Below, piece after piece: positions 6,227-61,999 of a stretch of 64,000 nt of DNA. The notes beneath the pieces were generated by a model, which saw only the letters and a program-made list of their open reading frames with translations, searched no databases and was not told the DNA's origin. The first letter of the stretch is position 1, and each line of letters opens with the position of its first letter. The translations under genes were made by a program, and so were the position numbers. The DNA lies in the NCBI RefSeq assembly GCF_040081985.1, contig NZ_JBEBMH010000002.1, forward strand, positions 1 through 64,000. The letters run 5' to 3'. The stretch is from Mesorhizobium yinganensis (GTDB taxonomy: Bacteria; Pseudomonadota; Alphaproteobacteria; Rhizobiales; Rhizobiaceae).

Positions 6227-6236
6227 TCCCGCATGC

Positions 6237-7145
6237 CTATTGCTTGATCGCGTCGCCGTACAGCTCCGCGGCGAGATCACGGACCGCATCGGCGGTGCGC
6301 GGCCCGAAGCCGAGCAGATAGGCTCCGCCCATGCGCACGAAGCTTCGCTTCTCGCCGGCCGGCGTCGACTGGATTGCCGGCAGTGAGAATAGCTGCGCCT
6401 CGGTCGCCGCATGATCTTCATCGCCGCCGCGGCTCATCATCAGGACGAGGTCGGGTTTGGCGGTGATGATCGCCTCGTCGGAGAGTGGGCGATAGCCCGA
6501 AAAACCCTGGATGGCATTGACGCCGCCCGCCATCTTGATGATGCCGTCCGCCGCCGTGTCTGCACCGGAGCCAAGAATCTTGCCGTCCTGCACGCTGAGC
6601 ACGAACAGCACGCGCTTGCGCTCGGCGATATTGGCGGTGAGGTCTTCCGCCGCCTTCAGGTCGGCGTCGACCTTGGCGGCAAGCTCTGCCGCCTTGTCAT
6701 CGGCGCCGATCGCTTTGCCGACGATGACGATCTTGTCGACGATGCCCTGGTGGCCGAAATGGTCGGGCACCTCGATATAGGGAACGCTGGCCTTCTTCAG
6801 CACGTCGACCGCTTCCTTGGGGCCGCTGCCCTGCAGCGCCAGGATGGCGCTGGGCTTTACCGACAGCACGCCCTCCGGCGAAAGCGCCCGCATGTAGCCG
6901 ACATCGGGCAGGCTGAAGGCGGCCTCGGGATAGACGCTGGTCGAATCGCGAGCGACCAGCCGCTTCTCCTCGCCCAGCGCAAAGACGATCTCGGTGATCG
7001 AGCCGCCGACGGCGACGATACGGCTGGGATCAGGGAAAACACTGACGCCTTCCGTGGCCTGCGCTGAAACGGACGCGGCCGCCGTGAATACCACGGCGGC
7101 GAGCAGGCGGCGCAGCGGCAAACCGCCAAGTCGGAACGATGTCAT
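6237..7145 (-). CDS. hmuT: Periplasmic hemin-binding protein
   Basis: Signal peptide MTSFRLGGLPLRRLLAAVVFTAAASVSAQA followed by a class-III substrate-binding-protein fold. Sits between hmuS and hmuU. Confidence 0.85.
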   Translation of the reverse strand: MTSFRLGGLPLRRLLAAVVFTAAASVSAQATEGVSVFPDPSRIVAVGGSITEIVFALGEEKRLVARDSTSVYPEAAFSLPDVGYMRALSPEGVLSVKPSAILALQGSGPKEAVDVLKKASVPYIEVPDHFGHQGIVDKIVIVGKAIGADDKAAELAAKVDADLKAAEDLTANIAERKRVLFVLSVQDGKILGSGADTAADGIIKMAGGVNAIQGFSGYRPLSDEAIITAKPDLVLMMSRGGDEDHAATEAQLFSLPAIQSTPAGEKRSFVRMGGAYLLGFGPRTADAVRDLAAELYGDAIKQ

Positions 7146-57251: not shown

Positions 57252-58721
57252 TTACCGCGCCAACGCAAAAACCGCATCGCAGTCGAGACGCTTCTCCAGT
57301 TCCGCAGCCACGTCGTCCAGTGCGCGCTCGACCTCCGCGCGATAGTCGATGCCGCCGCCCTTGACGCCGAGACTTTCCAGCAAGCGGGTGCGGAACAGGT
57401 CGGCGTGAAACAATCCGTGCATGTAGGTGCCGAACACTTTTCCGTCGGCGGAGGTCGCGCCATCCTCGACACCGCCGATCAGCGTCGCAGGACGCAGGCA
57501 ATCCGGGCCAAAGGTGCGGCCAAGATGGATCTCATAGCCGGACAGCGGCGCATCGAAGGCGAGCGACCGCGCGGTCACGTTGCGCACTGTCTTTTCCGGC
57601 TCCATCACTGTCTCGATATCGAGCAGGCCGAGCCCCGGCGTCTCACGCACGCTGCCCTCAATGCCATCTGGATCGCGCACGACGTGGCCGAGCATCTGGA
57701 ACCCGCCGCAGACGCCGACCACATGGCCGCCGCGCCGGCGGTGAGCCTTAAGGTCATCGTCCCAGCCATTCTTGCGAAATTCGATCAGGTCGCCAATCGT
57801 CGATTTCGAGCCTGGGATGACGACCAACCCGGCATCCTGCGGCAACCGCTCGCCGGGCGGGACGAACACGACCTCCACCTGTGGCTCGGCCTTCAACGGA
57901 TCGAGATCGTCGAAATTGGCGATGCGCGCCAGCATCGGCACCGCGATCTTGAGAGCCCGCCGCTCGCCGGCCGCCAGCCTCTCGAGCACGACCGAATCCT
58001 CGGACGGCAGCATTGCGGCCGCCTTCAGCCAAGGCACGACGCCAAAACAGCGCCAGCCGGTGAAACCCTGGATCGCCTTGATTCCGTCGTCGAACAGCGA
58101 GGCATCGCCGCGGAACTTGTTTATGAGATAACCGGCAATCATTCTCCGGTCTTCGTCCGGCAGGATGAGATGCGTGCCGGCCACCGACGCGATCACCCCG
58201 CCGCGGTCGATGTCGCCGACCAGGACGACCGGAACGTTGGCGCGCGTCGCAAAGCCCATATTGGCGATGTCGCGCGGCCGAAGGTTGATCTCCGCCGGCG
58301 AGCCCGCGCCCTCGACGATGACGAGGTCGGCACCCTCCCCGACCTTGGCCCAAGACTCCATCACGGCATCCATCAGCTTGGGTTTCAGTGCCTGGTAGTC
58401 CCGCGCCTTCGCCTGGCCGAACATTTTTCCCTGAACGATGATCTGCGAGCCGATGTCGCTTTGCGGCTTCAGCAGCACCGGGTTCATGTGCACCGAGGGC
58501 GCGACCCCGCAGGCAATCGCCTGCAGCCATTGCGCACGGCCGATCTCGCCGCCACCGGCCTCGCCGGGAATGTCGGCCACCGCGGCGTTGTTCGACATGT
58601 TCTGCGGCTTGAACGGCTTTACCTTCAGCCCGCGCCTTAGCGCCGCGCGGCAGAGCCCCGCGACCAGCACCGTCTTGCCGACATCCGAGCCGGTTCCCTG
58701 AAGCATGATCGCACGTGCCAT
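57252..58721 (-). CDS. cobQ: Cobyric acid synthase
   Basis: MARAIMLQGTGSDVGKTVLVAGLCRA is the CobQ N-terminus (ATP-binding). C-terminal glutamine amidotransferase domain with GVCGGFQMLG. About 489 aa. Confidence 0.85.
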   Translation of the reverse strand: MARAIMLQGTGSDVGKTVLVAGLCRAALRRGLKVKPFKPQNMSNNAAVADIPGEAGGGEIGRAQWLQAIACGVAPSVHMNPVLLKPQSDIGSQIIVQGKMFGQAKARDYQALKPKLMDAVMESWAKVGEGADLVIVEGAGSPAEINLRPRDIANMGFATRANVPVVLVGDIDRGGVIASVAGTHLILPDEDRRMIAGYLINKFRGDASLFDDGIKAIQGFTGWRCFGVVPWLKAAAMLPSEDSVVLERLAAGERRALKIAVPMLARIANFDDLDPLKAEPQVEVVFVPPGERLPQDAGLVVIPGSKSTIGDLIEFRKNGWDDDLKAHRRRGGHVVGVCGGFQMLGHVVRDPDGIEGSVRETPGLGLLDIETVMEPEKTVRNVTARSLAFDAPLSGYEIHLGRTFGPDCLRPATLIGGVEDGATSADGKVFGTYMHGLFHADLFRTRLLESLGVKGGGIDYRAEVERALDDVAAELEKRLDCDAVFALAR

Positions 58722-58723
58722 GC

Positions 58724-59323
58724 TCAGCGTCCCTCGCCGATGACCGAGCGCTGCGCCAGCGGCCCTCCGCGCCACAGATAGACGGCGAGCAGTGGATCGT
58801 CGCCGGTCCGCATGGCGTGATTGACGTTGGACGGGTGGTGGATGATGTCACCTGCCTCGCGAACCACAAAATCACCAACGCCCTTGCGCCATTCGGTGCC
58901 ACCGGTCAGCGGAACGTAGATCTCTTCTGCAATGTGATGGTGATCGGGATAATGCGCGTGCGGCCCGAGGATGAGGAATCCTGCCGCGATATCGTCATGC
59001 ACAAAATGCCCGCGCGAGCCGAGAACTTCGAGCCAGCCATAATTGTCGACGAAGTTCTGGCCGAAATCGGCGGCCGTGTAGGTCTGGCCCCAGCAGAACT
59101 GGTCGCGCTGCATTGCGACAACAGTTGCCAACGCTTCACCCGGCGTCGGCGCTATCTCGACGATCCTGTCGAGATGACCAAGGCATGCCAGCCGATTCGG
59201 AGTTAGCGCCCGTTCCTCCATCGCATTATCCAAGGCCGCGAAAAACCTCGGCGGCAGCCGATCCGAGATTTCGGTCAGATAGCCCAGGAAAGCCTGGAGC
59301 AGCCTTGCAGCAGTCGCAGTCAC
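58724..59323 (-). CDS. Cupin-domain protein (His-rich metal site; function unknown)
   Basis: GPHAHYPDHHHIAEEIYVPLTGG and AGDIIHHPSNVNHAMRTG are two His-rich cupin motifs. It is immediately upstream of cobQ in the same orientation. Confidence 0.5.
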   Translation of the reverse strand: MTATAARLLQAFLGYLTEISDRLPPRFFAALDNAMEERALTPNRLACLGHLDRIVEIAPTPGEALATVVAMQRDQFCWGQTYTAADFGQNFVDNYGWLEVLGSRGHFVHDDIAAGFLILGPHAHYPDHHHIAEEIYVPLTGGTEWRKGVGDFVVREAGDIIHHPSNVNHAMRTGDDPLLAVYLWRGGPLAQRSVIGEGR

Positions 59324-59439: not shown

Positions 59440-60606
59440 ATGGACACCGCAGTCGATCCGGCCGCCACGCAATTCGATCTTTCCGAGGATCAGCGTGCCA
59501 TCAAGGAGATGGCGGAGGCTTTTGCCGCCGACCGTGTGGCGCCGAACGCGCTCGACTGGGACAGCAAGCGGCATTTCCCGGCGGACGTGATCAGGGAGAC
59601 CGGTCCGCTGGGCTTTGGCGGAATCTATGTCCGCGACGATGTCGGCGGCTCCGGCCTGAAGCGCCTGGATGCCGTGCTTGTCTTCGAGGCGCTGTCACGT
59701 GCCTGCCCGGGCTTCGCCTCCTTCATCTCCATCCACAATATGGGCGCCTGGATGATCGACCGGTTCGGCAGCAAGGAACAGCGCCAGCGTTTCCTTCCGA
59801 AGCTGACAACCATGGAGTGGCTCGCCAGCTATTGCCTCACCGAGCCCGGTTCCGGCTCCGATGCCGCGGCGCTGAAGACACGCGCCGTTCGTGAAGGCGA
59901 CCACTATGTGCTGAACGGTACGAAACAGTTCATTTCCGGCGCAGGAGACAGTGACGTCTACGTCGTCATGGTCCGCACCGGCGCCGATGGACCGAAGGGC
60001 ATCTCGACGCTGGTGGTCGAGAAGGGCACGCCGGGGCTCTCCTTCGGGGGGCTGGAGCACAAGATGGGTTGGCACATGCAGTCGACCCGCCAGGTGATTT
60101 TTTCGGATTGCCGCGTGCCGGTTGCAAATCGCCTCTCCGAGGAAGGCGCCGGATTTTCGATCGCCATGGCCGGACTGGACGGCGGACGCCTTAACATTGG
60201 CGCCTGCTCGCTCGGCGGCGCCCAGTCGGCGCTGGACAAGGCTGTCGCCTATGCCGGCGAGCGAAAGGCATTCGGCAAGGCGATCCGTGAGTTCCAGGCG
60301 CTGCAGTTCAAGCTGGCCGACATGGAGACGGAGTTGCAGGCGGCAAGAATTTTCCTCTATGCCGCCGCGTCAAAACTCGATGCAAAAAGCCCAGAAGCCG
60401 GCAAATGGTCGGCGATGGCAAAACGCTTTGTCACCGACATCGGCTTCCAGGTGGCAAACGACGCGCTGCAGGTCCACGGCGGCTACGGCTATCTCCACGA
60501 CTACGGCATCGAGAAACTGGTGCGCGACCTGCGCGTCCATCAAATTCTCGAAGGCACCAATGAGATCATGCGGATGATCGTGGCGAGGACGTTGGTGGGG
60601 AAGTAG
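59440..60606 (+). CDS. Acyl-CoA dehydrogenase (isobutyryl-CoA dehydrogenase-like, valine catabolism)
   Basis: 388 aa. ACAD blocks YCLTEPGSGSDAAAL and QVHGGYGYLHDYGIEKLVRDLRVHQILEGTNEIMRMIV (catalytic Glu region). It is paired with mmsB downstream. Confidence 0.85.
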   Translation: MDTAVDPAATQFDLSEDQRAIKEMAEAFAADRVAPNALDWDSKRHFPADVIRETGPLGFGGIYVRDDVGGSGLKRLDAVLVFEALSRACPGFASFISIHNMGAWMIDRFGSKEQRQRFLPKLTTMEWLASYCLTEPGSGSDAAALKTRAVREGDHYVLNGTKQFISGAGDSDVYVVMVRTGADGPKGISTLVVEKGTPGLSFGGLEHKMGWHMQSTRQVIFSDCRVPVANRLSEEGAGFSIAMAGLDGGRLNIGACSLGGAQSALDKAVAYAGERKAFGKAIREFQALQFKLADMETELQAARIFLYAAASKLDAKSPEAGKWSAMAKRFVTDIGFQVANDALQVHGGYGYLHDYGIEKLVRDLRVHQILEGTNEIMRMIVARTLVGK

Positions 60607-60608
60607 AT

Positions 60609-60660
60609 CTAGGGCAGTAGGGCAGTAGGGCAGTAGGGCAGTAGGGCAGTAGGGCAGTAG
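60609..60660 (+). repeat. Tandem octamer array (TAGGGCAG)x6, left boundary of cassette
   Basis: ctagggcagtagggcagtagggcagtagggcagtagggcagtagggcagtagg starts 3 nt after the acdH stop. It places TAG stop codons in all three plus-strand frames. Confidence 0.85.
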
Positions 60661-60667
60661 GAAAAGG

Positions 60668-61036
60668 ATGCCCGAGAAGATCGATTCTTACAGGGACCTG
60701 GTCGTCTGGCAACAGGCGATAGATTTGGCTGTGGCCGTGTACGAAACGACAAGCAACTGGCCGAGGGACGAAGTCTACGGGTTAACCAGGCAAGCTCGTA
60801 GGGCGGCCACGTCCGTTCCCGCCAACATCGCCGAAGGATATGGCAGGGAAAATGTTGGCTCCTATCAGCAGTTCCTGAGGATCGCGCAAGGATCGTTAAA
60901 AGAGCTGGAGACGCATCTATTGATCGCACAACGCATAGGCATCGCATCGCGCGATGGAATCGGCCCCTTGCTAACCAGCAGTGAGAGCGTCGGAAAATTG
61001 CTGCGCCTTCTGATCCGAAGGCTCTCGAACGACTAA
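60668..61036 (+). CDS. Four-helix-bundle protein (23S rRNA intervening-sequence protein family)
   Basis: RBS aaaagg then ATG. MPEKIDSYRDLVVWQQAIDLAVAVYETTSNWPRDEVYGLTRQARRAATSVPANIAEGYGRENVGSYQQFLRIAQGSLKELETHLLIAQRIG carries the family hallmark blocks (L.VWQ.A, R.A..SI.ANIAEG, A.GS..E...L). GC is lower than in the flanks. Confidence 0.7.
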   Translation: MPEKIDSYRDLVVWQQAIDLAVAVYETTSNWPRDEVYGLTRQARRAATSVPANIAEGYGRENVGSYQQFLRIAQGSLKELETHLLIAQRIGIASRDGIGPLLTSSESVGKLLRLLIRRLSND

Positions 61037-61087
61037 CCCTACTGCCCTACTGCCCTACTGCCCTACTGCCCTACTGCCCTACTGCCC
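61037..61087 (+). repeat. Tandem octamer array (CCCTACTG)x6, exact reverse complement of the left array; right boundary of cassette
   Basis: ccctactgccctactgccctactgccctactgccctactgccctactgccc begins immediately after the TAA stop. It puts stops in all three minus-strand frames. Confidence 0.85.
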
Positions 61088-61114
61088 TTTCCACCGCCAT
61101 TCAGGAGCACGCAC

Positions 61115-61999
61115 ATGCCAACCATCGCATTCATCGGCCTCGGCAACATGGGCAACCCGATGGCGGCCAATCTGGTAAAGGCCGGGCACGCGGTACAGGG
61201 GTTTGACCTGATCCCCGAAAACCTCGCCACGGCAAAGGACCACGGCGTCGCCATCATGGCCAACGCCCATGCGGCGGTGAAGGACGCCGAAATCGTCATC
61301 ACCATGCTGCCGGCCGGCAAGCATGTCGTCTCGGTCTATGAAGACATCGTGCCGAACGTCGCCGACGGCGCGCTCCTGATCGACAGTTCGACGATCGACA
61401 TCGAATCGGCGCGCAAGGCGCACGGTATCGCGGCGCGGCGGGGCCTGCTTTCAGTCGACGCCCCGGTGTCGGGCGGCACCGGCGGCGCGGTCGCCGGCAC
61501 GCTGACCTTCATGGCGGGCGGCAGCGCCGAGGCCTTTACCAAGGCCGAGCCTGTGCTGAAGCCGATGGCCGGTCGCATCGTTCATTGCGGCGAGGCCGGC
61601 ACCGGTCAGGCGGCGAAAATCTGCAACAACATGATGCTCGGCATCTCGATGATCGGCGTCGCCGAAGCCTTCGTGCTGGCCGAAAAGATCGGGCTGACAC
61701 ATCAGGCGCTTTTCGATGTCGCCTCGACTTCGTCCGGCCAGTGCTGGTCGTTGACCACCTATTGCCCGGTGCCCGGCCCCGTCCCCAGTTCGCCGGCCAA
61801 TCGCGACTACAAGCCCGGCTTCGCCGCGGCACTGATGCTGAAGGATCTGAAGCTCGCGCAGGAGGCCGCGCAATCCTCCGGCGTCGCCACGCCGCTCGGC
61901 GCGCAGGCCGCGCAACTCTACGCGCTGTTCTCGGGACTCGGCCATGCCGGCAGCGATTTCTCCGGCATCATCCGCATGCTGCGCGGTGACGTTGGGTAA
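61115..61999 (+). CDS. mmsB: 3-hydroxyisobutyrate dehydrogenase
   Basis: MPTIAFIGLGNMGNPMAANL (NAD-binding GxGxxG), DAPVSGG, and catalytic Lys region AAKICNNMML. 294 aa. Confidence 0.85.
   Translation: MPTIAFIGLGNMGNPMAANLVKAGHAVQGFDLIPENLATAKDHGVAIMANAHAAVKDAEIVITMLPAGKHVVSVYEDIVPNVADGALLIDSSTIDIESARKAHGIAARRGLLSVDAPVSGGTGGAVAGTLTFMAGGSAEAFTKAEPVLKPMAGRIVHCGEAGTGQAAKICNNMMLGISMIGVAEAFVLAEKIGLTHQALFDVASTSSGQCWSLTTYCPVPGPVPSSPANRDYKPGFAAALMLKDLKLAQEAAQSSGVATPLGAQAAQLYALFSGLGHAGSDFSGIIRMLRGDVG

Follow-up and report, generated by a model that had tools for sequence, protein, structure and literature searches.

The element that lies between acdH and mmsB in the window (the stretch of 64,000 nucleotides of Mesorhizobium yinganensis DNA analysed here) is, with a probability of roughly 55%, a gene-bearing hairpin with tandem-repeat arms that holds a functional, promoterless PF05635 gene in its loop, would be transcribed by read-through as a cassette of the intervening-sequence (IVS) type and is probably cut by RNase III. 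The PF05635 protein itself is a relative of the proteins encoded by 23S rRNA IVSs and of Avd, the accessory protein of DGRs. The features of the element and its host operon are listed in Table 1.

Table 1 Features of the acdH-mmsB junction in the window.
Feature	Position	Strand	Basis
Acyl-CoA dehydrogenase (acdH), upstream host gene	59440-60606	+	Pfam Acyl-CoA_dh_N, _M, _1, E 1e-26 to 3e-48
Left (5') arm, (TAGGGCAG)x6.5	60610-60661	+	Tandem Repeats Finder (TRF): 100% matches, score 104
Predicted RNA (or cruciform) stem-loop: perfect 51-bp stem, 376-nt loop	60611-61088	+	RNA folding
Putative RBS region of the four-helix-bundle gene	60659-60667	+	AGGA 60659-60662, 5 nt 5' of ATG; read from sequence
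Four-helix-bundle gene, 122 aa + stop, forming the hairpin loop	60668-61036	+	PF05635/TIGR02436 matches
Right (3') arm, (CCCTACTG)x6.5, exact reverse complement of the left arm	61037-61088	+	TRF, perfect, period 8
Residual intercistronic spacer with mmsB Shine-Dalgarno AGGAG (61103-61107)	61089-61114	+	sequence
3-Hydroxyisobutyrate dehydrogenase (mmsB), downstream host gene	61115-61999	+	TIGR01692 equivalog 440.7 bits, cutoff 291.6

A previous sequence-only reading of this DNA had described a 369-bp ORF bracketed by perfect inverted octamer arrays. This description was confirmed by TRF, which found both arrays to be perfect, with a period of 8 and 6.5 copies each; together they form a 51-nt inverted repeat of 100% complementarity whose arms lie 376 nt apart. 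The 16-mer GGGCAGTAGGGCAGTA occurs ten times in the window, each time within the two arrays, where shuffled sequences lead one to expect 0. The ORF starts 6 nt past the left array and its end abuts the start of the right array exactly. The left arm is purine- and G-rich. In a frame check, TAG closed all three frames in the left array on the plus strand and in the right array on the minus strand, while reading outward from the cassette met 0 stops (the right arm has none on the plus strand and closes all frames on the minus strand); the proposal that translation is stopped on entering the cassette, but not on leaving it, is thus correct for the window. Folding of positions 60596-61114 yielded -254.9 kcal/mol, compared to a mean of -185 ± 7.5 for shuffled sequences (z = -9.4), and the full 51-bp stem was present in the MFE as well as in the centroid structure. 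The first three bases of the AGGA motif take part in the final base pairs of the predicted stem; junctions of the form ...GTAGGGCAAGG-ATG, equivalent to this putative RBS, occur in L120-L130. As also stated before, the GC content of the cassette is below that of its flanks (ORF 0.556, GC3 0.675; acdH 0.626 and 0.787; mmsB 0.661 and 0.847). No promoter-like site was found on the plus strand inside the cassette, the only terminator-like site lies 3' of mmsB, and Rfam gave no match within the cassette.

The assignment of the 122-aa product to the four-helix-bundle family likewise stood, with scores above the curated cutoffs. The protein reached 116.5 bits against PF05635 (cutoff 33.8, E 7.7e-34), its sole Pfam match, 108.8 bits against TIGR02436 (cutoff 24) and 173.1 bits against NF008911 (cutoff 137), and phmmer matched it to 2GSC (E 6e-20). 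An AF2 model with four helices (pLDDT 91) superposed on 2GSC with a TM score of 0.84 (rmsd 1.4 Å) and on 2RLD with 0.81. These two structures, of Xcc0516 and BT_0352, respectively, contain five chains each. The modelled fold is also Avd-like (TM 0.77-0.79 to 4DWL and 8UB7), at a sequence identity of about 14%. The family motif GxxRxxxSxxxNxxE (PMC3936711) is present from its arginine onward as R45, S49, N53 and E56, with Q42 in place of the leading glycine; across the aligned homologues S49, N53 and E56 do not vary at all and R45 hardly does (≥90%). An identical protein is on record for Mesorhizobium sp. CN2-181. At the level of coding sequence, the protein is shown to be under purifying selection (dN/dS 0.04-0.16). 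Searches for a nuclease, HUH or recombinase motif in the protein found none, and PADLOC and PHROGs returned no matches for it.

The flanking Pfam and TIGR01692 matches identify acdH and mmsB, the pair that the cassette had been said to split. Orthologues of acdH adjoin mmsB in at least 15 related loci, and the cassette ORF has the same direction as both genes. The acdH stop codon TAG occupies positions 60604-60606, and the left array follows 3 nt further. An empty site, as had been anticipated for close relatives, exists in three related Mesorhizobium loci (L219-221), where the spacer between acdH and mmsB is only 24 nt long (AGCAGCAAATTTCGGGAGACAACG); positions 61089-61114 of the window align with the SD-proximal half of this spacer in L219. 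The comparison shows that the cassette was inserted into what had been a ~24-nt spacer, bounded by the stop codon of acdH and the ribosome-binding site of mmsB. Comparison of the empty site in L219 with the filled sites revealed no duplicated flank, and neither a transposase nor a recombinase was found in or beside the cassette; therefore, 'inserted' denotes an outcome and not a mechanism. On the same grounds (target-site duplication and transposase both lacking), membership among transposons or MITEs was rejected.

Other relatives display further states of this junction. Intact cassettes occupy it in L130 and L082, with arms of 8-mers, and in L217, with arms of 7-mers. L217 differs from L215 only in the spacer, where the cassette is present in the former and absent in the latter: the flanks are 99.2% and 99.8% identical and show no clustered mismatches around this swap. 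The sequence-only reading had held that arrays lacking the ORF at this junction, as a simple microsatellite, would speak against a cassette. ORF-less arrays indeed occur in four relatives (L039, L212, L213 and L214), which bears this objection out in part, but these are inverted pairs forming a hairpin and not microsatellites, and in L032 the gene is visibly deleted internally. The arms of L032 consist of 8-mers throughout on the left and of a mosaic of 8-mers and 7-mers on the right. These alignments show loss of the gene at the acdH-mmsB junction by internal deletion, with hairpin-only forms left behind.

We propose that the cassette, lacking its own promoter, would be transcribed by read-through from acdH. 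In the transcript the arms would pair into the 51-bp stem, folding the insert out of the operon, so that the acdH stop would again lie no more than ~30 nt from the start of mmsB; this would account for the tolerance of the insert. By analogy with the homologous IVS of Coxiella, a stem of this length may serve as an RNase III substrate; its cleavage would free the mRNA of the four-helix-bundle gene and part the acdH message from that of mmsB. The Shine-Dalgarno sequence of the four-helix-bundle gene lies in the top of the predicted stem, so that the stem should restrict translation of the gene. In Mesorhizobium, a valine-catabolism operon may be split or modulated by the element. The complementarity of the arms is probably not due mainly to selection on single RNA base pairs. 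Over 51 loci the mismatches in the arms comprised 55 G.U versus 50 A.C, no sense-RNA-specific pairing bias, and thus give no specific argument for selection acting on the sense RNA. The complementarity may instead be kept mainly by DNA-level processes, with slippage during replication inside arrays and gene conversion between the numerous arrays of a genome. A DNA-level role of the arms, as cruciform, recombination site or protein-binding array, fits the same pairing data. An RNase III stem by itself does not account for the consistently purine-rich 5' arm or for the period of 7-8 nt.

The octamer of the Mesorhizobium arrays is GGGCAGTA, which reads (GGGCAGUA)n as RNA. Such arrays were found at no fewer than 119 loci in Mesorhizobium and relatives, and nearly all of them are hairpins of array, spacer and inverted array without a gene; the gene is present in 6 of the 119 and absent from the other 113. 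The arrays, which had been regarded as boundary repeats of the cassette itself, are a dispersed hairpin repeat of the whole genus. In total, 85 inverted pairs have the order G-rich then C-rich array, 78 of them with a spacer between -5 and 82 nt; the opposite order was seen in just 3 cases, which resemble separate neighbouring elements. Apart from L032, no spacer of a gene-less hairpin contained gene remnants above the level of shuffled controls, and no other genes were found in the loops. In many loci the array starts on the upstream gene's stop codon or extends over it. A count of gene ends at arrays is left out here as confounded, since arrays end every open frame and GC-rich DNA contains long spurious ORFs.

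The gene-bearing form is restricted to two conserved operon sites in the Phyllobacteriaceae, the second being flanked by genes for a GlnA-like protein and a DAO oxidoreductase. The proteins of these two paralogous sites are ~75% identical and both sites use GGGCAGTA. At the GlnA-like/DAO site the right arm counts 2 or 11 units in strains with an identical protein, so that array copy number is shown to vary among strains that share one and the same protein. Such hypervariable arrays could serve as markers for strain typing.

The layout observed in the window recurs across the family. We sampled 69 diverse metagenome members by similarity to the window protein and scored inverted repeats around the genes. 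A score of at least 14 was reached by 47 of these 69 genes and by none of the 117 control ORFs (Mann-Whitney p 7e-21). The period was 7 nt in 67 of 72 perfect arrays, the 5' arm was purine-rich in 45 of 51 loci, the upstream neighbour was co-directional in 48 of 60, and 12 of 45 metagenome loci held extra heptamer arrays a few kb or less from the gene. The repeat units are lineage-specific and 7-8 nt long, mostly heptamers (for example GATATCA, ACAGATG and AATTGACA), and homologues at 59-67% identity in other genomes have different units. Cyanobacterial plasmid copies carry heptamer arms of TCAGGAG (L224) or CCTCTGC (L222/L223), and Bacteroides copies of the BT_0352 type sit between araD and araA within arms of (AATTGACA)n, a unit shared by two Bacteroides sites. 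Comparison of these loci shows a hairpin of inverted 7-8-nt arrays to be the normal setting of PF05635 genes in Proteobacteria, Cyanobacteria and Bacteroides, and GGGCAGTA to be the Mesorhizobium version of the 7-8-nt units of the family. Among 80 sampled metagenome relatives, Rfam placed 79 outside rRNA; only L194 is in 23S rRNA, as a true helix-45 IVS whose heptamer-built arms are purine-rich and pyrimidine-rich. The known 23S rRNA inserts are a small minority of the PF05635 family.

Two general principles were considered for the arms and rejected. Stops on entry, which had been put forward as a property of the arrays, hold in the window but are not a family trait: over 51 loci, 80 stop codons fell in 5' arms and 66 in 3' arms, and 7 loci were closed in all frames on each side. 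Likewise, (GGGCAGTA)n fits the G-quadruplex motif, but this cannot be the general principle because units of other lineages (GATATCA, ACAGATG, AATTGACA) have no G runs. Literature searches on the repeat and on PF05635/TIGR02436 yielded no paper describing such arms, with the exception of the Coxiella heptamers. The sequence-only reading knew of no element with octamer-array termini; the octamer proved to be a local variant of the family-wide 7-8-nt rule, and the GACAGAT heptamers of Coxiella were already in print (PMC4990558).

The element might also consist of two ordinary microsatellites that came to lie on either side of a small gene by chance or by an error of assembly. As with any microsatellite, the arrays are perfect and their copy number varies between strains. 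However, many independent assemblies show the identical unit, inverted order and tight bracketing, and they do so at two sites; the family-wide statistic speaks against chance, and 0 matches of the 16-mer are expected in shuffled sequences. This explanation is already contradicted and hardly credible.

Another explanation regards the array hairpins as self-spreading structures, useful or neutral to the host (terminators, transcript stabilisers or translational insulators), in which the gene is a selfish or incidental passenger moving between hairpins by homologous recombination with the arrays as homology arms. The lack of the gene at 113 of 119 array loci would fit, as would the position of many arrays at or over the upstream stop codon and the closure of all frames on entry in Mesorhizobium. 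The mosaic right arm of L032 next to its all-8-mer left arm points to exchange between arrays, and the spacer swap between 99%-identical strains left no clustered flank mismatches. However, such a passenger role leaves unexplained why one gene family resides in such hairpins in several phyla and with differing units, and no other gene was found in the loops. The protein is also conserved and the stop-codon property is not general, and we therefore regard this explanation as distinctly unlikely.

As a gene-bearing hairpin, the element resembles several known systems. IVSs in 23S rRNA that encode the 'S23p' or IVS protein occur in Leptospira, Coxiella, Brucella and Xanthomonas (Ralph and McClelland 1993; PMC4990558). 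The sequence-only reading had likened the window to these IVSs, and the likeness in layout holds: the PF05635 protein is homologous, and its ORF fills the loop of a long terminal-inverted-repeat stem, sense to the host transcript. In L194 the arms are also repeat-built, purine- and pyrimidine-rich, as in the window. In the IVS of Coxiella, tandem GACAGAT heptamers of variable number lie upstream of the ORF, and RNase III cleaves in vitro inside a 28-bp stem (PMC4990558); these variable heptamers by the Coxiella start codon and the decay-prone gene are further points of likeness. Unlike these inserts, the window element occupies the spacer of an mRNA operon between protein genes rather than a 23S helix (9, 25 or 45), its stem is longer (51 bp, perfect, versus 28 bp) and its unit is an octamer. 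Moreover, its protein is clearly under purifying selection, and RNase III cleavage of its stem is a prediction.

Cyanobacterial STRR sequences, short tandemly repeated repetitive heptamers, were reportedly described by Mazel et al. in 1990. Like these, the Mesorhizobium arrays are dispersed, intergenic and tandem, and STRR arrays with their 7-nt units are often hairpin-capable. The cyanobacterial PF05635 genes examined (L224, L222/L223) are bracketed by such heptamers. The window element differs in its alphaproteobacterial host and its 8-nt unit, although in L217 and L032 the same junction carries 7-mer variants. STRR sequences are mentioned in PMC2858038, and we found no papers linking STRR arrays to PF05635 genes.

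Inverted-repeat inserts within transcription units form a third group for comparison. Correia, ERIC and other co-transcribed inverted-repeat elements are reported to be processed by RNase III in mRNAs (De Gregorio et al.). Elements of the Correia/ERIC type are non-coding and have terminal inverted repeats of unique sequence and target duplications. With these elements the window cassette shares its place within a transcription unit and a stem that could be cleaved by RNase III and could alter the expression of neighbours; it differs by its conserved gene, its tandem-array arms and the lack of a visible target duplication.

The fold also raises the question of a relation to DGRs. Like Avd, the closer relatives 2GSC and 2RLD crystallise with five chains. 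The gene might be an avd whose reverse transcriptase (RT) and template/variable repeats lie elsewhere or were lost, that is, a DGR remnant or satellite. In addition to the fold match, some close homologues have weak matches to PF22296 (bAvd), and one is named 'Diversity-ge...' in UniRef. Yet the neighbours are metabolic in the window and at every related locus examined, with no RT family listed among them; the flanking repeats are short 7-8-nt arrays and not a template/variable repeat pair, and the identity to Avd is low. DGR membership was rejected, and an origin as remnant or satellite is very improbable.

A further parallel in genomic layout is offered by REPIN-RAYT systems (PMC3116915, PMC3337134). 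In both cases inverted copies of a repeat flank a vertically inherited gene that is present in low copy at conserved sites, and the repeat is also dispersed as many gene-less intergenic hairpin doublets, a REPtron-like arrangement. By analogy, the four-helix-bundle protein could be the trans-acting factor of the arrays, with a few conserved genes maintaining or propagating the gene-less hairpins and a pentamer binding the 7-8-nt units on ssDNA or RNA, possibly together with a host reverse transcriptase or nuclease. This would agree with a unit that is the same throughout a genome and varies from lineage to lineage (GGGCAGTA at two Mesorhizobium sites, AATTGACA at two in Bacteroides), with the strong purifying selection and the conserved polar residues, with the extra heptamer arrays near the gene in part of the metagenome loci, and with Avd, the nearest relative of known function, being a pentamer that binds nucleic acid and RT. 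However, RAYT is an IS200/IS605-type tyrosine (HUH) transposase, whereas the window protein is a 122-aa helical bundle devoid of nuclease, HUH and recombinase motifs and of PADLOC and PHROGs matches. REPs are single palindromes of 20-40 nt with a GTAG tag and not tandem arrays; the octamer does contain GTAG, but without the palindromic REP body, and assignment to the REP 'GTAG' family was rejected. Outside the Rhizobiales, GGGCAGTA arrays were found in Pirellulaceae, cyanobacteria (Okeania, Leptolyngbya), Streptomyces and Acetobacter, and no family gene was present near them in the fetched blocks of 8 kb. Gene conversion alone could also make the unit uniform across a genome. A REPIN-RAYT-like role of the protein appears unlikely, and we retain the read-through-transcribed, IVS-type hairpin as the preferred reading.

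Extending the comparison to all array hairpins, one may speculate that PF05635 genes with their arms and the gene-less array hairpins form one unrecognised, multi-phylum class of elements. Its gene-bearing members would be autonomous, the gene-less ones, including STRR and the Mesorhizobium octamer hairpins, would be non-autonomous or decayed, and the 23S IVSs would represent copies that ended up in helices of rRNA. An Avd-like pentamer might read the 7-8-nt units and be required to propagate or maintain the arrays, possibly via an RNA intermediate and a host reverse transcriptase, in analogy to what Avd does. We consider this scheme possible, if rather doubtful.

Among orphan families PF05635 is very large, with more than 7,000 relatives of the window protein at E ≤ 0.001. 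Its textbook context is only the rare 23S rRNA IVS. The finding that these genes usually reside in a hairpin of inverted 7-8-nt arrays provides the family with a structural definition and a testable hypothesis, and it connects three old puzzles, namely the origin of ORF-bearing IVSs, the STRR arrays of cyanobacteria and the array hairpins dispersed in rhizobia. It also advises caution towards guilt by association: family genes located between cmr2 and cmr3 (L225), or scored as defence-linked (PMC3936711), may be no more than inserts of this kind.

The cassette between acdH and mmsB consists of a four-helix-bundle gene and two octamer arrays that form its arms, and every factual element given for it in the sequence-only reading (ORF, arrays, frames, flanks and GC) was borne out. 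The perfect inverted repeat, put there at about 50 bp, measures 51 nt at 100% complementarity, with 376 nt between the arms. The ORF starts 6 nt past the left array and extends up to the start of the right one. As claimed, translation meets stops in every frame on entry and none on exit: TAG occurs in all three frames when the left array is read on the plus strand and the right array on the minus strand, and both arrays are stop-free when read outward. GC of the ORF, read there as lower than in the flanks, is below that of both neighbours, and so is GC3. No further copy of the array motif occurs in the 64-kb window, where none is expected by chance either. In the cobyric-acid-synthase region of the window, long ORFs of 507, 411 and 382 aa overlap across the two strands; they are shadow ORFs of the kind usual in GC-rich DNA rather than extra genes.

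Features of the cassette and of loci from relatives, other genomes or metagenomes (L handles) fetched for comparison
Feature	Locus	Position	Strand	Description
Left array	window	60610-60661		TAGGGCAG, period 8, 6.5 copies, perfect
Right array	window	61037-61088		CCCTACTG, period 8, 6.5 copies, perfect
Four-helix-bundle ORF	window	60668-61036	+	122 aa, sole ORF between arrays
Probable Shine-Dalgarno	window	60659-60662		AGGA
acdH	window	stop codon 60604-60606		upstream flank; acyl-CoA dehydrogenase
mmsB	window			downstream flank; 3-hydroxyisobutyrate dehydrogenase, TIGR01692, 440 bits
Overlapping ORFs	window	57252-58902	both	rejected
acdH/mmsB, truly empty	L219-L221			stop codon, AGCAGCAAATTTCGGGAGACAACG, ATG
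acdH/mmsB, filled, octamer arms	window, L130, L082			intact; protein 90% (L130) and 74% (L082) identical
acdH/mmsB, filled, heptamer arms	L217			intact; TAGGCAG
acdH/mmsB, remnant	L032			large internal deletions, ~158 nt remaining; homologous to L217-type gene
acdH/mmsB, arrays only	L039, L212, L213, L214			L213 Kumtagia, L214 Pseudaminobacter
Arms of L039	L039	~6230-6290		right arm homogenised to variant CCCTGCTG; left arm remains GGGCAGTA
acdH/mmsB, unrelated 118-nt repeat	L215, L216, L218	1883-2000		array-free
GlnA-like/DAO oxidoreductase, filled	L003, L026, L041, L045, L096, L120-L129, L131, L133			L133 metagenome locus
23S rRNA helix-45 IVS	L194	1-540		ORF 82-450, sense to rRNA
Family gene, NZ_CP016476.1	L225	1489-1845		Picosynechococcus sp. 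PCC 7003 plasmid
Bacteroides family genes	L226-L229, L234-L237	1501-1851/1854		metagenome
Bacteroides family genes	L230-L233	1501-1878		metagenome
RNase P RNA	L174	68-630		bacterial, RF00010, 238 bits

The encoded protein clears the curated cutoff by a wide margin for PF05635, TIGR02436 and NF008911, which confirms the predicted membership of the four-helix-bundle family. It matches Xcc0516 (2GSC) with an E value of 6e-20, and an identical sequence is on record from Mesorhizobium sp. CN2-181; searches of PADLOC and PHROGs gave no match. The predicted fold is a four-helix bundle (pLDDT 91) with TM scores of 0.84 to 2GSC, 0.81 to BT_0352 (2RLD) and 0.77-0.79 to Avd, the accessory protein of diversity-generating retroelements; that the cassette is a remnant of such a retroelement is contradicted by the gene neighbourhoods. 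Among Mesorhizobium-group copies, dN/dS for pairs of sequences is 0.04-0.16, reflecting purifying selection and thus a working gene. Decayed copies also occur, with a frameshift (L041), a compensated frameshift (L045) or an internal deletion (L032).

All filled hairpins found in Phyllobacteriaceae occupy one of two operon junctions, acdH/mmsB or GlnA-like/DAO oxidoreductase. At the latter, arm length varies among strains with identical protein, the right arm having 2 units in L124 and 11 in L126. For the former, the sequence-only reading had proposed to define an empty site in relatives, and such a site was found: the cassette is an insertion, and it decays into hairpin-only forms. It is old, as species with about 80% identity in the flanking proteins have it in common, and its presence is still polymorphic within one species: MmsB is identical in L215 and L217, and the flanks are 99.2% and 99.8% identical, with few mismatches that do not cluster at the junction. 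L212, with arrays only, is a close relative by MmsB (93%), L130 and several other matches being comparably close. No target-site duplication was visible at this junction between the window and its relatives. The empty, filled and decayed sites thus bear out the small mobile cassette as an outcome, which does not extend to a mechanism.

The 118-nt element that replaces the cassette in L215, L216 and L218, all with an MmsB identical to that of L217, starts with GCATTTTGCAGCCAAGTGGAATCACTTGGCGTCGCAGAAATGC, has its own inverted repeat and probably belongs to a further family of rhizobial intergenic repeats, which marks the junction as a hotspot for small inserts. In L039 and L082, the original acdH stop codon is gone and the gene terminates at a TAG of the array; in L130, the array's first TAG serves as the acdH stop codon.

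Searching one genome per species with (GGGCAGTA)x3 yielded at least 119 loci, mostly in Mesorhizobium and other Phyllobacteriaceae; among the matches listed, a few were in Brucella, Pirellulaceae, cyanobacteria, Streptomyces and Acetobacter. At a typical locus, (GGGCAGTA)n forms a perfect array and is followed, across a short spacer, by the inverted array, which is more degenerate; its units include CCTTACTG, CCCTATTC and CCCTACTC. Among the matches listed, a tolerant detector found 85 array pairs in G-rich-then-C-rich order, 78 of them with a spacer of -5 to 82 nt; only three had the reverse order, and these resemble adjacent separate elements. The sequence-only reading had proposed to check whether arrays elsewhere always form inverted pairs around a small ORF; the pairing was found, and only 6 of the 119 listed loci hold a family gene. 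At many loci the array start touches or overlaps the upstream gene's stop codon. Several loci have orthologues in other species, which makes many hairpins old residents. The arrays also exist independently of the cassette, as a genus-wide hairpin repeat. The 113 gene-less loci among the matches listed fit autonomous host hairpins with the family gene as a passenger, a reading that leaves unaccounted for why only the PF05635 family occupies loops across phyla.

Outside Rhizobiales, GGGCAGTA arrays continue into other 7-8-nt units (GGGCAGTG, GGGCAGTT, GGCGAGT, CGCAACT, GGGTAAGA, GGGGAGT) in four Pirellulaceae MAGs (L002, L035, L084, L095) and in Okeania (L005), with no family gene near these compound tracts within the 8-kb block.

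A metagenome scan seeded with the family alignment was evaluated for the best 80 of 593 matches (42-71% identity), the arm score being the best ungapped complement between 200-230 nt upstream and 200 nt downstream. A score of at least 14 was reached by 47 of 69 family genes with usable flanks versus 0 of 117 other ORFs of the same loci (medians 17 versus 8; Mann-Whitney p 7e-21); as these loci are the top-ranking 80 of 593, 47/69 is an estimate for relatives of the cassette protein and not for the whole Pfam family. These statistics contradict two chance microsatellites around a small gene. Tandem arrays make up the arms, and their unit varies by locus (TAGGCAG, TAGCGAA, GTGAATA, GGGACTG, ACAGATG, CAGTACC, AACAGAG, GATATCA), with a period in perfect arrays of 7 nt in 67 of 72, 8 nt in three and 6 nt in two. 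The 5' arm is purine-rich in 45/51 loci (mean 0.67). Upstream, the closest neighbour reads in the direction of the family gene in 48 of 60 cases; downstream, 22 neighbours share that direction and 29 are convergent. Among these best 80 of 593, only L194 lies in 23S rRNA, as a real intervening sequence (IVS) with GGGGCGA/GAGAGGC heptamer arrays and pyrimidine-rich complements as arms. This IVS and the shared gene-in-stem-loop layout make the core idea of the sequence-only reading sound, namely that an mRNA operon here carries an IVS-like cassette. The octamer-array termini, for which that reading knew of no described element type, are the local form of a rule that is general for PF05635 genes and apparently undescribed. 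No paper was found on repeat-array arms as a general feature of PF05635 genes, on a link of cyanobacterial short tandemly repeated repetitive heptamers to the family, or on the octamer array.

Arms also occur in other lineages. On Nostoc punctiforme pNPUN02, a family gene is preceded by (TCAGGAG)5, and on Nostoc PCC 7120 plasmids it is followed by CCTCTGC arrays. On plasmids gamma (L222) and alpha (L223) of the latter, the identical protein WP_010994075.1 is encoded next to transposase genes (ISL3, IS200/IS605, ISAzo13-like); apparently an insertion-sequence end has replaced the 5' arm and the 3' CCTCTGC array was kept. In L225, a type III-B operon carries the family gene between its cas10/cmr2 and cmr3. 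Zhang et al. reported family genes within cas operons, including the corresponding cmr2/cmr3 position in Pleurocapsa, and considered a functional link (PMC3936711). The GGAGATAA-type inverted arms of L225 suggest an intercistronic insertion rather than a cas function. In the distant Bacteroides branch (BT_0352, 26% identity), the araD/araA site of the arabinose operon encodes the BT_0352-type protein crystallised as 2RLD, and a paralogue type with 79% identity to it is found between an aminotransferase gene and DAHP synthase/chorismate mutase. In L226-L233, (AATTGACA)n / (TTGTCAAT)n arms occur at either site; a more diverged araD/araA copy (L234-L237) has different, GAATTGAT-type arms.

No sigma-70-like site was found on the plus strand within the cassette, and a terminator-like site occurs only past mmsB. 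The cassette may thus be promoterless and, if so, read through from acdH. Its RNA is predicted to fold into a 51-bp stem (-254.9 kcal/mol, z -9.4). Pairing of the arms in the transcript would fold the insert out and bring the acdH stop back to about 30 nt from the mmsB start, near the 24-nt spacing at the empty site. A stem of such length is an RNase III substrate, and by analogy with its Coxiella homologue the cassette stem may be cut. As the probable Shine-Dalgarno sequence lies within the final stem pairs, translation of the cassette gene would be held down. We regard this read-through and RNase III model as the most likely mode of working; its account covers neither the 7-8-nt period nor the purine richness of the 5' arm nor the origin of new copies.

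Arm mismatches show no G.U excess (G.U 55 versus A.C 50). Together with a unit that is uniform per genome and differs by lineage, and with the mosaic of 8-mers and 7-mers in the right arm of L032, this indicates that arm complementarity probably reflects DNA-level turnover. A REPIN/RAYT-like system, in which the family protein would act on the arrays, matches the layout and a unit that is uniform within each genome; the protein has no enzymatic motif.

The Coxiella IVS has a 28-bp terminal stem that RNase III cuts in vitro, taking off the Shine-Dalgarno region and leaving a labile excised RNA, and carries 'three tandem heptameric repeats (GACAGAT)', variable in number, directly 5' of its ORF (PMC4990558). 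The same heptamer also flanks L158 and L174. The RNase P RNA of L174, at 563 nt against a 367-position model, carries a large insertion; no tandem array was found inside it. A family gene flanked by CAGATGA arms is 2.3 kb away.
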